DNA from: a virus
Lineage: Duplodnaviria > Heunggongvirae > Uroviricota > Caudoviricetes
IMG/VR virus record: IMGVR_UViG_2778261083_000006
Strand: one strand, 5' to 3'
Length of the DNA: 8,576 bases
Positions 3,510 to 8,576 of this stretch are shown here, piece by piece. The notes under the pieces are model-generated. The model did not search any database. It was not told the DNA's origin and was given only the letters and a program-made list of their open reading frames with translations. A program made the translations under genes and the position numbers. The first letter of the stretch is position 1. Each line of letters starts with the position of its first letter.

Positions 3510-5784
3510 AGCCTCCGGGCGTTTTGTCCCTCCGTCAGCATTTGCCGCAGGCACCGGTAAGGCGTTTACCGGTGCTTATGCATGGAACGCGCCACGCGAG
3601 GCCGTCGGGCGGGAAAGACCCCTTACACGTGACGAGATGCGTCAGGTGCAAGGTGTTTTATCCACGATTAACCGCCTGCCTTACTTTTTGCGCTCGCTGT
3701 TTACTTCACGCTATGACTACATCCGGCGCAATAAAAGCCCGGTGCACGGGTTTTATTTCCTCACATCCACTTTTCAGCGTCGTTTATGGCCGCGCATTGA
3801 GCGTGTGAATCAGCGCCATGAAATGAACACCGACGCGTCGTTGCTGTTTCTGGCAGAGCGCGACCAGTATGCGCGCCTGCCGGGGATGAATGACAAGGAG
3901 CTGAAAAAGTTTGCCGCCCGAATCTCATCGCAGCTTTTCATGATGTATGAGGAACTCTGCGATGCCTGGGTGGATGCGCATGGCGAAAAAGAATCGCTGT
4001 TTACGGATGAGGCGCAGGCTCACCTGTATGGTCATGTTGCTGGCGCTGCACGTGCTTTCAATATTTCCCCGCTTTACTGGAGAAAATACCGTAAAGGGCA
4101 GATGACCACGAGGCAGGCATATTCTGCCATTGCCCGCCTGTTTAACGATGAGTGGTGGATTAGTCAGCTTAAAGGCCAGCGTATGCGCTGGCATGAGGCG
4201 TTACTGATTGCTGTCGGGGAGGTCAATAAAGACCGTTCACCTTATGCCAGTAAACATGCCATTCGTGATGTGCGTGCGCGCCGCCAGGCAAATCTGGAAT
4301 TTCTTAAATCGTGTGACCTTGAAAACAGGGAAACCGGCGAGCGCATCGACCTTATCAGTAAGGTGATGGGCAGTATTTCTAATCCTGAAATTCGCCGGAT
4401 GGAGCTGATGAACACCATTGCCGGTATTGAGCGTTACGCCGCCTCAGAGGGTGATGTGGGGATGTTTATCACGCTTACCGCGCCGTCAAAGTATCACCCG
4501 ACACGTCAGGTTGGAAAAGGCGAAAATAAAACCGTCCAGCTTAATCACGGCTGGAATGATGAGGCATTTAATCCAAAGGATGCGCAGCGTTATCTCTGCC
4601 GTATCTGGAGCCTGATGCGCACGGCATTCAAGGATAATGATTTACAGGTCTACGGTTTGCGTGTCGTCGAGCCACACCACGACGGAACGCCGCACTGGCA
4701 TATGATGCTTTTTTGTAATCCACGCCAGCGTAACCAGATTATCGAAATCATGCGTCGCTATGCGCTCAAAGAGGATGGCGACGAAAGAGGAGCCGCGCGA
4801 AACCGTTTTCAGGCAAAACACCTTAACCGGGGCGGTGCTGCGGGATATATCGCGAAATACATTTCAAAAAATATCGACGGCTATGCACTGGATGGTCAGC
4901 TCGATAACGATACCGGCAGACCGCTGAAAGATACTGCGGCGGCTGTTACCGCATGGGCGTCAACGTGGCGCATCCCGCAATTTAAAACGGTTGGCCTGCC
5001 GACAATGGGAGCTTACCGTGAGCTACGTAAATTGCCTCGCGGCGTCAGCATTGCTGATGAATTTGACGAACGCGTGGAGGCTGCACGCGCCGCCGCAGAC
5101 AGTGGCGATTTTGCGTTGTATATCAGCGCGCAGGGCGGGGCAAATGTCCCGCGCGATTGTCAGACTGTCAGGGTCGCCCGTAGCCCGTCGGATGAAGTTA
5201 ACGAGTACGAGGAAGAAGTCGAGAGAGTGGTCGGCATTTACGCGCCGCATCTCGGCGCGCGTCATATTCATATCACCAGAACGACGGACTGGCGCATCGT
5301 GCCGAAAGTTCCGGTCGTTGAGCCTTTGACTTTAAAAAGCGGCATCGCCGCGCCTCGGAGTCCTGTCAATAACTGTGGAAAGCTCACCGGCAGTGATACT
5401 TCGTTACCGGCTCCCACACCTTATGAACATGCCGCAGCCGTGCTTAATCTGGTTGATGACGGTGTTATCGAATGGAATGAGCCAGAGGTCGTGAGGGCGC
5501 TCAGAGGTGCATTAAAACACGAACTGAGAACACCAAATCGTCAGCAGAGAAACGGAAGCCCGTTAAAACCACATGAAATAGCGCCATCGGCCAGACTGAC
5601 CCGGTCGGAACGAACGCAAATTACCCGTATCCGCGTTGACCTTGCTCAGAACGGTATCAGGCCGCAGCGATGGGAGCTTGAGGCGCTGGCGCGTGGCGCG
5701 ACCGTAAATTATGACGGGAAAAAATTCACGTATCCGGTCGCTGATGAGTGGCCGGGATTCTCAACAGTAATGGAGTGGACATAA
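3499..5784 (+). CDS. A: Rolling-circle replication initiator / replication endonuclease (P2 gene A protein), HUH superfamily
   Basis: 761 aa from ATG 3499 (MAVKASGRF...). HUH motif H-W-H at 4693-4701 in VEPHHDGTPHWHMMLF; paired tyrosines in GYIAKYISKN at codons 450 (4846-4848) and 454 (4858-4860), the numbering of the P2 A active-site tyrosines. The track ORF from 3457 starts at an upstream TTG. Confidence 0.95.
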   Translation: MAVKASGRFVPPSAFAAGTGKAFTGAYAWNAPREAVGRERPLTRDEMRQVQGVLSTINRLPYFLRSLFTSRYDYIRRNKSPVHGFYFLTSTFQRRLWPRIERVNQRHEMNTDASLLFLAERDQYARLPGMNDKELKKFAARISSQLFMMYEELCDAWVDAHGEKESLFTDEAQAHLYGHVAGAARAFNISPLYWRKYRKGQMTTRQAYSAIARLFNDEWWISQLKGQRMRWHEALLIAVGEVNKDRSPYASKHAIRDVRARRQANLEFLKSCDLENRETGERIDLISKVMGSISNPEIRRMELMNTIAGIERYAASEGDVGMFITLTAPSKYHPTRQVGKGENKTVQLNHGWNDEAFNPKDAQRYLCRIWSLMRTAFKDNDLQVYGLRVVEPHHDGTPHWHMMLFCNPRQRNQIIEIMRRYALKEDGDERGAARNRFQAKHLNRGGAAGYIAKYISKNIDGYALDGQLDNDTGRPLKDTAAAVTAWASTWRIPQFKTVGLPTMGAYRELRKLPRGVSIADEFDERVEAARAAADSGDFALYISAQGGANVPRDCQTVRVARSPSDEVNEYEEEVERVVGIYAPHLGARHIHITRTTDWRIVPKVPVVEPLTLKSGIAAPRSPVNNCGKLTGSDTSLPAPTPYEHAAAVLNLVDDGVIEWNEPEVVRALRGALKHELRTPNRQQRNGSPLKPHEIAPSARLTRSERTQITRIRVDLAQNGIRPQRWELEALARGATVNYDGKKFTYPVADEWPGFSTVMEWT

Positions 5785-6236
5785 TGGCAAAAATTCACGA
5801 GGTAAAGCTGCACGCAAAATATTTCGACCTTGTGCTGGAAGGAAAGAAACGTGCAGAGTTCCGGAAAAATGACCGTAATTATGAGCGCGGGGACACGTTG
5901 ATTTTGTATGAATGGGTGCAGGGTGTGTATACGGGGCGAAATGTTGAAGCCCGGATAACAGATGTTACTGACCTGTCAGACTGGCTGGAAGATTATGTCT
6001 TGCTAAGTATTGAGCTGCTTAATACAGGCGCATATGAGATTGTGAACTGGAAAGAACTTAGTGAGCGTGGCCTGGTATTCAGAATTAATCATGAAATTAT
6101 GCATCAGCTCGGCCTTGCTGTTATGTATGAACCAGAGACGGGGATGTCTGGCGGGGCAATGGTTGCCACGGATGGAGCATGGAACTATTCAGATGAACAG
6201 ATGGAGCGTGCACAGCAAAACGGGTGGCTTGGATAA
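5784..6236 (+). CDS. ASCH/PUA-like (DUF3850-type) domain protein, 150 aa
   Basis: N-terminus MAKIHEVKLHAKYFDLVLEGKKRAEFRKNDRNYERGDTLILYEW fits the ASCH beta-barrel pattern (G-x-K...R...GD). ATG 5784 overlaps the A stop (TAATG) and follows GGAGTGG. The track start at 5748 is a GTG inside A. Confidence 0.65.
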   Translation: MAKIHEVKLHAKYFDLVLEGKKRAEFRKNDRNYERGDTLILYEWVQGVYTGRNVEARITDVTDLSDWLEDYVLLSIELLNTGAYEIVNWKELSERGLVFRINHEIMHQLGLAVMYEPETGMSGGAMVATDGAWNYSDEQMERAQQNGWLG

Positions 6237-6442
6237 TGCACAGAATACCAGGCGAGATACCGCACCATAAAACTAAAAATATCAAGCTGATGGCTATTGT
6301 TCAGCGTTTACAGCGGATTATGGTCAACGAAAATCTGACGCCCGATGAGCTGGTCGGGTGTGCCGAAATAGTCCGGGATAATTACGGGCGGTTTAACCAT
6401 ATCGGTCAGTCCAGAGTTGCGCCACCACAACGCAGACGATAG
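6236..6442 (+). CDS. Hypothetical small protein, 68 aa
   Basis: ATG 6236 overlaps the upstream stop (TAATG); phage-like GC; no recognisable motif. A shorter start at MAIVQRL... is possible. Confidence 0.35.
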   Translation: MHRIPGEIPHHKTKNIKLMAIVQRLQRIMVNENLTPDELVGCAEIVRDNYGRFNHIGQSRVAPPQRRR

Positions 6443-6448
6443 AGAACG

Positions 6449-6483
6449 CCGCCAGTCGTGAAACTTGTTTTCAGGGCTGGCGG
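6449..6483 (+). other. Imperfect hairpin at the boundary between phage core and low-GC cargo
   Basis: CCGCCAG (6449-6455) pairs with CTGGCGG (6477-6483); inner stem TGAAA (6459-6463) with TTTCA (6469-6473). No T-run follows, so it is not a canonical intrinsic terminator. Confidence 0.3.
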
Positions 6484-6629
6484 GGTTGAATAACGAGTGT
6501 CGCGAGGCGTTAGTTTGAGCTTACAATTAAACCTATTGAAAATTAATGAGAAGTCAATTTTATCTTTTTCTCGTTAAAGATGACCACAACTACTAAAACG
6601 TGAGAATATCAAGACTTGGCAAAATCTAG

Positions 6630-6679
6630 CTTTTCCCAACGGGGTGTTTCGCTATAATACGCGGTCGGTTTTTAGGAGG
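6630..6679 (+). promoter_or_regulatory. Candidate promoter and RBS for the methyltransferase gene
   Basis: Consensus -10 TATAAT at 6653-6658 with a weak -35 (CTTTTC, 6630-6635, 17-bp spacer); AGGAGG at 6674-6679, 5 nt before ATG 6685; 243-bp AT-rich intergenic region. Confidence 0.45.
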
Positions 6680-6684
6680 GGTCA

Positions 6685-7623
6685 ATGCCAACTGTAGTTT
6701 CACTTTTTTCTGGATGTGGTGGTTCTGATGCGGGAGTTTTGAACGCAGGTTTCAATGTGCTTATGGCAAATGATATTTTGCCTTACGCAAGGGACGTTTA
6801 CTTAGAAAACCATCCTGAAACTGACTACATTTTGGGCGATATCTCAGGGCTCCAGTCGTTCCCTTCTGCTGAGTTGCTCATCGGATGCTATCCTTGCCAA
6901 GGATTTAGTCAAGGTGGGGCAAGGAAGGCAGATAGAAAGATTAATACACTATATTTAGAGTTTGCCCGTGCTTTGAGTAAAATTAAGCCAAAAGCATTCA
7001 TTGTAGAGAATGTCTCTGGTATGGTAAGGCGTAACTTTGAGCATTTATTAAAGGATCAATTCAAAGTTTTCGAAGAAGCAGGTTATACAGTAAGCTCGCA
7101 AATTCTGAATGCGTCCCATTATGGGGTATCCCAAGATAGGAAGCGAATCTTTATCGTAGGAATACGAAAGGACTACGGTATTACATACAAATTTCCAAAA
7201 CCAACACATGGTGATGGTTTGACACCATATTCCACAATTCGTGATGCTATTGGGCATATGCCTGTTTGGCCTGTTGGCGAGTTTTATGACGCCGATTTTC
7301 ATTGGTATTATCTATCGCGAAACCGTAGGCAAGATTGGGATCAGATATCTAAAACAATTGTTGCAAATCCTAGACATATGCCTCTACATCCAATAAGTCC
7401 AACATTAGAAAAATTGGGACCTGATAAGTGGCAATTTACTTCGGATGCACCAGCTCGTAGGTTTAGCTATCGAGAGGCTGCTATTTTACAAGGTTTTGGG
7501 GATTTAATTTTCCCAGAAACTGAACGGGCTTCTATTAATATGAAATATACTGTGGTAGGTAATGCAGTACCGCCTCCATTGTTTGAGGCGGTTGCTAGAA
7601 ACCTTCCAGATTTATGGGATTAA
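6685..7623 (+). CDS. DNA (cytosine-5)-methyltransferase
   Basis: Motif I FSGCGG (6703-6720); catalytic P-C in GCYPCQGFSQGG (Pro-Cys at 6892-6897); motif VI FIVENVSGM; motif VIII SQDRKRIFIVG; C-terminal REAAILQGF and VVGNAVPPPLF. 312 aa, about 40% GC. Confidence 0.93.
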   Translation: MPTVVSLFSGCGGSDAGVLNAGFNVLMANDILPYARDVYLENHPETDYILGDISGLQSFPSAELLIGCYPCQGFSQGGARKADRKINTLYLEFARALSKIKPKAFIVENVSGMVRRNFEHLLKDQFKVFEEAGYTVSSQILNASHYGVSQDRKRIFIVGIRKDYGITYKFPKPTHGDGLTPYSTIRDAIGHMPVWPVGEFYDADFHWYYLSRNRRQDWDQISKTIVANPRHMPLHPISPTLEKLGPDKWQFTSDAPARRFSYREAAILQGFGDLIFPETERASINMKYTVVGNAVPPPLFEAVARNLPDLWD

Positions 7624-8525
7624 GCAGCGATCGCGCTGGAAGGATCAAGGATGATATCTAGATAGCTAATATTTTGACTGTGATCAATATTATCAGATGC
7701 TCTGGTTAAATTGATTAATCTTAGGCGATCAACAAAAATAGCATCGCCTAACTTATTTTTATGCGCCCACTCACCATCTATCCATCGTAGATCTTGAGGT
7801 AAGAAATAATAAGTTGCCCATCGGTGAGCTACGGGGAATTTACTGTAGAGCATCGCAGGTGAGGCCTCAAGCTGCTTCGCTTCCCACTCTTCTTGAGAAC
7901 AGCCACACTGAACAAAAGAAATAGGGATGGCATCTCGTTGATCTCCCATTGGATGCCAGGCAATTATGTCAAGGCCTCCGTCACCACTATTTCCTCGACT
8001 GAAATCTCGTTCTTTGAAGTTCGCTGTGCAACGGATATCGGAAGCAATACTCTTAAATTTATTATATAGAGTTCCAGTGTAAGGGGCCGCTTGACCACCA
8101 GAAGCCCAGCATGCTTTTATTATGCTACCGCTAGGCATTAGGCTTTCAAAAATAGGTAAACTAATTAGTTCAAAACTGCGCGTTATCTCTCTTCTGCTCA
8201 TTATGTTGACATATTTTATGTTAGCACAGATTAGTAAAGCTAAATATAGTCTTTCTAAATGTTCCAGTGGCTTTTCTGATATATCACGTAACTCTACAGT
8301 ATCGTTGTCTTCTGATAAAGTAAAAGGGTAACTATCCCCAAATAAATCAATGCGTTGTCGTATGAAGCCTATCGCATAGCTCCACTTTCTGTCAGTATAT
8401 GCTCGACTAACACTTCGTTTTGTTCTCTTGCGTACAGGCGTATCATTTTCATCATCAACATCATAAACGCCCTCTTCTTCTGCTTCATCTGTTTCAGCTA
8501 GGGAAGGTGCGAATAAGCAGGTCAT
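7620..8525 (-). CDS. Unknown protein convergent with the methyltransferase; candidate restriction endonuclease or other defence effector; may be 5'-partial
   Basis: At least 301 codons; its stop overlaps the methyltransferase stop by 4 bp (7620-7623); about 33-38% GC. The frame has no stop between ATG 8523-8525 and the window end at 8576, so the true start may lie outside the window. No motif I can assign confidently; a weak PD-(D/E)xK-like pattern (GLDIIAW ... EAK) is speculative. Confidence 0.7.
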   Translation of the reverse strand: MTCLFAPSLAETDEAEEEGVYDVDDENDTPVRKRTKRSVSRAYTDRKWSYAIGFIRQRIDLFGDSYPFTLSEDNDTVELRDISEKPLEHLERLYLALLICANIKYVNIMSRREITRSFELISLPIFESLMPSGSIIKACWASGGQAAPYTGTLYNKFKSIASDIRCTANFKERDFSRGNSGDGGLDIIAWHPMGDQRDAIPISFVQCGCSQEEWEAKQLEASPAMLYSKFPVAHRWATYYFLPQDLRWIDGEWAHKNKLGDAIFVDRLRLINLTRASDNIDHSQNISYLDIILDPSSAIAA

Positions 8526-8576
8526 TTCTTCCCAAGTTGACTCGCTGATTAAAATTTCGCGGATCTGGGCCGATTT

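Follow-up and report, generated by a model that had tools for sequence, protein, structure and literature searches.

The window analysed here is a stretch of 8,576 nucleotides from a virus of the Caudoviricetes (IMG/VR record IMGVR_UViG_2778261083_000006), and the gene in question is the open reading frame (ORF) at 6685..7623 on its plus strand, a C5-cytosine DNA methyltransferase (hereafter the methylase) of 312 residues, ATG to TAA, that corresponds to Mth of phage WPhi. We propose, with a probability of roughly 0.6, that this enzyme is the modification component of a three-gene, restriction-modification-like defence cassette in the P2 hotspot. By gene content and sequence, the methylase, a nuclease-like gene (gp96) and a ParB-like gene (gp98) form a widespread and conserved module. 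The sequence-only reading of this DNA had offered two possibilities, half of a restriction-modification pair or a phage-borne orphan; the link to the neighbouring gene stands, but the pair has become a trio, the third gene of which lies beyond the window. The window copy of the methylase is probably the leftover of a decayed system, orphaned by an insertion sequence (IS) and effectively solitary.

Profile matches and motifs identify the ORF as a genuine, full-length C5-methyltransferase, in agreement with the sequence-only reading, which had recognized a complete enzyme with all core motifs. Pfam PF00145 (DNA_methylase) aligns with residues 3-307 over profile positions 2-322 of 324 (E = 9.9e-62; 209.7 bits, cut-off 22), and the NCBIfam model TIGR00675 (dcm) exceeds its curated threshold (1.8e-54; 185.6 bits, cut-off 100.65). 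The translation contains motif I (FSGCGG, 8-13), motif IV (PCQ, 70-72), motif VI (ENV, 108-110), motif VIII (QDRKR, 150-154), motif IX (REAAILQGF, 263-271) and motif X (GNAVPPP, 292-298); the codon of the catalytic Cys71 in motif IV, at 6895..6897 (+), aligns with Cys71 of M.HaeIII. The gene is already known, as the deposited WPhi mth (RefSeq WP_001143634.1; protein cluster P0121, 100% identity), and among the 120 matches listed its close relatives all carry the generic name 'DNA cytosine methyltransferase'. The enzymology is probably ordinary and HaeIII-like; it is the setting of the gene that stands out.

The phage origin suggested earlier is confirmed by this setting. The window encodes an integrase, the C repressor, Cox, B, orf80-83 and a 775-residue Phage_GPA protein, and thus represents the left arm of a P2-like (Peduovirus) prophage; positions 6200-8501 match phage WPhi with 99.7% nucleotide identity. 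The gene order in WPhi (AY135739 / NC_005056) is gp92, mth (annotated as 'DNA cytosine methylase'), gp96, gp98 and the portal gene Q, which places the methylase between gpA and the portal gene, in the same gap that holds tin and old in P2 and that is described as a defence hotspot (PMC9519451; PMC9122126). The G+C content falls from ~0.52-0.57 in gene A to ~0.40-0.44 in the cassette. In the best E. coli match, CP173544, the prophage adjoins cpxP, which corresponds to the cpxP-fieF site used by WPhi1 in E. coli W (PMC3032704).

Co-inheritance of the three genes bears directly on the possibility that the methylase is an orphan phage enzyme, which shields WPhi-type DNA from GGCC cutters or tunes expression, with gp96 and gp98 being unrelated hotspot defence. 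Solitary methylases are common in phages, and the one studied here lies on the opposite strand to gp96 and gp98, follows the early operon (no terminator was found separating them), belongs to a module that recombines independently of its partners and, in the window, is effectively solitary through the disruption of gp96. We nevertheless regard the orphan explanation as improbable, for the following reasons. Of 5426 complete E. coli genomes, 140 (~2.6%) carry the methylase gene (counted at ≥80% coverage), and a partner pair accompanies it in every one. Even the subtypes agree in number: 104 genomes carry the methylase at ≥99% identity and exactly 104 carry WPhi-type gp96-gp98 DNA, while 36 carry it at ~93% nucleotide identity and exactly 36 carry the partner pair of the type found in the P2-like phage vB_EcoM-12474III. 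The stop codons of the methylase and the gp96 remnant overlap in the window (7620-7623), the two genes being arranged tail-to-tail. Furthermore, a chance neighbour in a phage hotspot would not be expected to accompany the methylase into the chromosomes of Methylomonas or Dechloromonas.

The distribution outside E. coli extends the same pattern. A methylase 84% identical to that of the window occurs in Klebsiella and other Enterobacteriaceae in the gpA-portal interval of 186/P2-like prophages, where its partners have 308 and 359 residues. Homologues of gp96 in Methylomonas, Oryzomicrobium and Methylotenera occupy ordinary chromosomal settings outside prophages, and in all three genera are flanked by an upstream gene of 331-359 codons and, on the other side, by a convergent C5-methylase; a weak Pfam ParB_N match is recorded for this upstream gene in Methylomonas and Methylotenera, and none in Oryzomicrobium. 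A methylase scan with one genome per species returned 80 loci (62-87% identity), nearly all from beta- and gammaproteobacteria. In 69 of them the flank extended 2.3 kb or more downstream, and the ORFs of these 69 were searched with profiles: 64 had both partners next to the methylase and all 69 had at least one, mostly outside prophages, which is difficult to reconcile with an orphan enzyme. The layout is mostly convergent and at times colinear; six loci have another gene order, with the methylase colinear with ParB then nuclease, or after both. Genes for Vsr, the very-short-patch repair endonuclease that acts on T:G mismatches, lie immediately beside the methylase gene at seven or more loci of beta- and gammaproteobacteria (PF03852; the four of these ORFs that were checked with Pfam gave 1e-24 to 1e-28), and none is present in the window; since a Vsr gene beside the methylase is expected only if 5-methylcytosine is made, these neighbours lend indirect support to the predicted activity. 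A Vsr fragment was noted at a further locus (L004, 9590-9766).

The three genes differ in how they vary. In hidden Markov model searches the coefficient of variation of the score was 0.06 for the methylase, 0.64 for the nuclease-like protein and 0.47 for the ParB-like protein, and the nuclease and ParB scores were correlated with each other (Spearman 0.90) far more than with the methylase (0.39). The two partner scores thus co-vary while that of the methylase is nearly fixed, which argues that the nuclease-like protein and its ParB-like partner are exchanged together, although part of the correlation may be plain co-inheritance. Phage vB_EcoM-12474III provides an example: its layout is that of WPhi and its methylase is 98% identical, whereas the middle protein shares only 25% and the ParB-like protein 32% identity.

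The immediate partner, gp96, is 341 residues long in the commonest gene call (P0001) and 369 by the WPhi annotation. No match to its family was found by sequence in Pfam, NCBIfam, PADLOC, a PDB phmmer search or a PDB profile search, and in PHROGs it falls only into phrog_3984, of unknown function. An AlphaFold2 model built with 73 homologues (predicted local distance difference test (pLDDT) score 93.2) comprises a winged-helix-like N-terminal part and a nuclease-like domain, in which the elements follow the order helix 148-169, strands 175-178, 227-230 and 242-247, helix 254-261 and strand 277-281. The invariant residues E159, D222, D226, D235, Q246 and K257 are compatible with the modelled core. 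A Foldseek search of the model against solved structures in the PDB gave nothing significant. On the basis of the model, gp96 is quite probably a nuclease, PD-(D/E)xK-like by fold.

The third member, gp98, lies past the right end of the window (6455-7528 of the WPhi stretch) on the same strand as gp96 and ends 4 nucleotides upstream of the intact gene, the two forming an operon in the order gp98, gp96; RefSeq lists gp98 as a 357-residue 'ParB N-terminal domain-containing protein'. Its model (pLDDT 87.6) has an N-terminal fold of the nucleotide-binding ParB/KorB type, with the repressor KorB as best structural match, and a ParB-type helix-turn-helix domain. FDPxNPRF and EGNRRLAA are invariant in the family and resemble ParB motifs (DPxNPRF and GNRRL); we take them to be counterparts of ParB boxes I and II, which bind cytidine triphosphate (CTP). 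In PADLOC, gp98 matches PD-Lambda-5_A models (down to 3e-24, residues 45-195), and its best model is PDC-M38A (9.2e-25, residues 85-371 on profile positions 58-342).

These features also admit a classical two-gene Type II system, in which gp96 would be the GGCC endonuclease and gp98 a controller, similar to KorB or a C protein, that times nuclease expression on prophage entry. Type II systems commonly encode a control protein ahead of the nuclease gene, and the match to KorB, the helix-turn-helix domain, the lack of conserved CTP-hydrolysis residues and the presence in gp96 alone of both winged-helix-like and nuclease-like parts are all consistent with such an arrangement. We consider it unlikely, because gp98 is large (~358 residues) and better conserved than the nuclease (~55% against 41-45% identity between E. 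coli and Methylomonas), co-varies tightly with it (perhaps only through co-inheritance, as above) and is homologous to the effector-bearing A protein of PD-lambda-5; moreover, IS1 splits gp98 in strain GF47 and leaves the nuclease gene intact, a combination that ought to be dangerous if repression of the nuclease gene were all that gp98 does.

The target of the methylase was addressed by comparison with solved enzymes. Among all PDB sequences, M.HaeIII (1dct) alone aligns through the target-recognition domain to the C-terminus (HMMER, residues 4-307 of the methylase, 168.8 bits, E = 1.6e-48), and the next-best matches reach at most 80 bits and cover the catalytic half only. The sequence-only reading had seen a likeness to M.HaeIII in SRNRRQDW...LHP, had taken it as a weak hint of a short GC-rich target, and had suggested aligning the target-recognition region with characterised enzymes as a check; the alignment includes SRNR and LHP and confirms this likeness. 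The target-recognition domain comprises approximately residues 197-247, encoded at 7273..7425 (+). Within it, S211, R212, N213 and R214 (codons 7315-7326, +) correspond to S224, R225, N226 and R227 of M.HaeIII, and R230 (7372-7374, +) to R243; S211, R212, R214 and R230 are identical to their HaeIII counterparts and unchanged in all six methylases of the cassette that were compared (E. coli, Klebsiella, Methylomonas, Oryzomicrobium and Methylotenera). In a laboratory-evolution study of M.HaeIII, Arg225 contacts the first guanine, Ser224 and Arg227 contact internal bases, and the substitution Arg243Gln moved the preference away from GGCC (PMC3526282). In addition, the P2-like record OU784549 names the methylase gene bspRIM by similarity, and BspRI is also a GGCC enzyme. 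We therefore favour GGCC, or a site that contains it, as the predicted target, noting that the identity to HaeIII within the target-recognition domain is only about one-third. No methylome or HaeIII-protection data on WPhi lysogens were found in the literature.

Site avoidance was also tried as a clue to the target and proved uninformative, as cassette-free P2 has nearly the same observed/expected ratio of GGCC (0.68) as WPhi (0.66). GGCC is the second-lowest 4-base palindrome in both WPhi and P2, with or without the cassette, and GATC is the most depleted by far (0.34 in the window, 0.23 in WPhi and 0.20 in P2).

In the mechanism we propose, the methylase would mark GGCC at its internal cytosine, on the DNA of host and prophage alike, and would be expressed constitutively from its own promoter with additional read-through from the early operon during lytic growth. 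gp98 would possibly serve as a nucleoside-triphosphate-gated DNA clamp or sensor acting with gp96, the presumed cutter, and the two would attack incoming unmarked DNA. M.HaeIII produces G-m5C sites, and such sites are attacked by McrBC. In E. coli W, which naturally harbours WPhi, mcrBC, mrr and hsd are all missing (PMC3032704), a host pattern that supports the proposed mechanism. A more far-reaching version, which we put forward only tentatively, is that the cassette represents a new class of restriction-modification, in which gp98, as a ParB-fold, nucleotide-gated DNA clamp or sensor, would license gp96, a separate PD-(D/E)xK nuclease, on DNA without GGm5CC; the extremely conserved methylase would supply one universal self-mark, and the clamp-nuclease pairs would diversify rapidly (to ~25-30% identity), perhaps under pressure from phage inhibitors, and swap as units.

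In the window itself, this system appears to have been broken. The window matches WPhi through 8501 and diverges from 8502, where the left end of an IS5-family, ISKpn26-like element begins (8502..8576, with the terminal inverted repeat GGAAGGTGCGAATAAG), and gp96 is reduced to a 3' remnant of 293 codons plus stop at 7620..8501 (-). The CTAG at 8498..8501 is the target site and is duplicated beyond the element; both junctions are visible in the near-identical genome CP173544, where they read CAGCTAG/GGAAGG and CCTTCC/CTAG/TACTGC (slashes mark the boundaries) and enclose the RefSeq ISKpn26 transposase. The 301-residue ORF that spans the junction (7620-8525, -) is chimeric, its ATG and first 8 codons (8502-8525) being derived from the IS. 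Residues 1-48 of gp96 (341-residue form) are missing, including the invariant P9, W16, D18 and E21. The convergent neighbour to which the sequence-only reading had pointed is functionally linked to the methylase and co-inherited with it, but in the window it is a remnant interrupted at 8501/8502. The insertion would have removed the conserved N-terminus of gp96 and cut the gene off from the gp98 promoter, most likely leaving a solitary but still active methylase.

Other copies of the cassette have decayed in a similar manner. The CTAG in gp96 has been hit at least twice independently, by the ISKpn26-like element and by a 91%-identical IS5, and a rearranged IS5 occupies it in a third genome (the two further E. 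coli genomes are CP196168 and CP193883); together with the IS1 insertion in gp98 described above, these disrupt the partners and spare the methylase, which is intact in all four IS-disrupted copies examined and retained at ≥80% coverage in each of the 140 carriers. Disruption of the partners with retention of the methylase fits the loss of restriction before modification that is predicted by restriction-modification biology, although the numbers are small and IS5 has a preference for CTAG in any case.

Several observations weigh against a restriction-modification-like cassette. In the gp96 model, the canonical lysine of (D/E)xK is replaced (Q246-C-G), so that the motif is non-canonical and catalysis is putative. 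The residues for CTP hydrolysis in ParB (EN of ENLxR) are not conserved across the gp98 family, and WPhi shows no extra depletion of GGCC relative to cassette-free P2. Sequence comparison shows far less divergence in the methylase than in the two partners, which is unusual for a classical pair; its slow change beside diverged partners could mean that gp96 and gp98 have no part in reading the site. Lastly, no experiment on the cassette was found in the literature.

The expression signals of the methylase are in part as first described. The strong Shine-Dalgarno sequence noted in the sequence-only reading is present as AGGAGG at 6674..6679 (+), 5 nucleotides before the ATG. The promoter proposed there has a perfect candidate -10 box, TATAAT, at 6653..6658 (+), but no good -35 precedes it (the best candidate, TTTTCC, has 3 of 6 matches) and the site is absent from the list returned by a sigma-70 consensus scan of the window. 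Both elements are kept in seven divergent enterobacterial copies, in which the -10 box with the next 30 nucleotides and the Shine-Dalgarno sequence are invariant; the invariance of the block TTCGCTATAAT...AGGAGGGGTCAATG argues for function. The ~130 nucleotides before the methylase (6540-6684) are conserved throughout Enterobacterales. They contain a GGCC site, TGGCCA, ~100 nucleotides before the ATG in six of the seven aligned copies (TGACCA in the window), and AGGCCT is located between the putative -35 and -10 in three of the seven; such sites may allow autoregulation by methylation, or binding of the methylase. An antisense ORF of 84 codons opposite the methylase (7048-7302, -), also found in WPhi, has no support as a real gene and was taken as spurious.

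Two further small genes precede the methylase. A 162-residue protein with DUF3850/ASCH and DUF7415 domains (5748-6236, +) occupies the position of P2 orf91, its start overlapping the end of gene A. It is followed by an ORF of 72 codons as listed (6224-6442, +; the WPhi gp92 annotation is shorter) that belongs to phrog_11386, a phage family of unknown function that accompanies enterobacterial prophage copies and not chromosomal cassettes.

The cassette merits attention for its reach as well as its composition. The trio occupies the P2 hotspot of ~2.6% of complete E. coli genomes and of many Klebsiella and enterobacterial prophages, and is found in the chromosomes of dozens of species of beta- and gammaproteobacteria. 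Even so, the trio is without a name and its nuclease without a Pfam family. If the trio restricts unmethylated DNA, the ParB-type nucleotide switch would join the known mechanisms of restriction and provide a mechanistic handle on PD-lambda-5, which is validated and unexplained; the literature yielded nothing specific on the trio or on the mechanism of PD-lambda-5. Carriers would have GGCC-methylated DNA, with consequences for cloning, HaeIII-type digests, transfer to McrBC-proficient recipients and C-to-T mutation driven by 5-methylcytosine. The IS-broken copy in the window is in effect a natural 'R-minus M-plus' control.

Known systems resemble the cassette in parts. Among PADLOC models, the best match of the methylase is DruM2|DruM of Druantia type II (PDLC00027, 1e-110), and it also matches DrmMII (2.4e-48), which raises the possibility that it is a remnant or component of Druantia type II or DISARM class 2. 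We consider this very improbable, as the genes on either side of the cassette are gpA and the portal gene or, in chromosomes, unrelated ones, and neither DruE (the helicase), DruF or DruG nor the Drm helicase/PLD genes were present in the flanks of any copy examined; the similarity to the DruM-like cytosine methylase is that of C5-methylases in general, and membership of either system was rejected. The PADLOC candidate PDC-M38 has a profile of 715 positions, twice the size of gp98, and gp96 matches no PADLOC model. Relative to the CTPase clamps of the ParB/KorB type, the cassette has no ParA or parS context. GmrSD/BrxU and SspE also combine a ParB fold (DUF262) with a nuclease, but theirs is a fused HNH/DUF1524 domain whereas here it is a separate PD-(D/E)xK-like protein, and they target modified DNA whereas the cassette, with a methylase of its own, should target unmodified DNA.

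M.HaeIII (PDB 1dct, 3ubt) is the closest counterpart of the methylase, with the same compact single-domain build (330 residues, 312 here), all ten motifs, the GGCC-contact residues and an alignment from end to end through the target-recognition domain; the differences are the limited identity within that domain and a target that is here predicted and may be a longer site containing GGCC. M.BspRI resembles the window methylase by annotation transfer, and the partner genes of the cassette have no sequence relationship to any known GGCC endonuclease family in Pfam. WPhi has the same flanking gp92 and gp96 and the same insertion site by cpxP as the window prophage, but its gp96 and gp98 are intact whereas the window gp96 is split by the IS5-family insertion; the functions given in its record are limited to 'DNA cytosine methylase', 'orf96' and 'orf98'. 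PD-lambda-5 was selected experimentally in E. coli and is broadly protective; its cloning required a strain with the mrr region deleted, and Vassallo et al. (2022, PMC9519451) interpreted it as an 'RM+Abi' system in a compacted, prophage-borne form. Like the cassette, PD-lambda-5 combines a methylase with a protein that has a ParB-like N-terminal domain, the domain through which gp98 matches its A protein. It differs in having two genes rather than three, the separate PD-(D/E)xK-like gene of the cassette being extra, in having a Dam-like, D12-class N6-adenine methylase (PF02086) instead of a C5 enzyme (PF00145), and in the putative HEPN/DUF4145 C-terminus of its A protein, the C-terminal half of gp98 being different. 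The cassette is not PD-lambda-5, but the two are related by their logic and by the ParB domain, and PD-lambda-5 is its closest validated relative.

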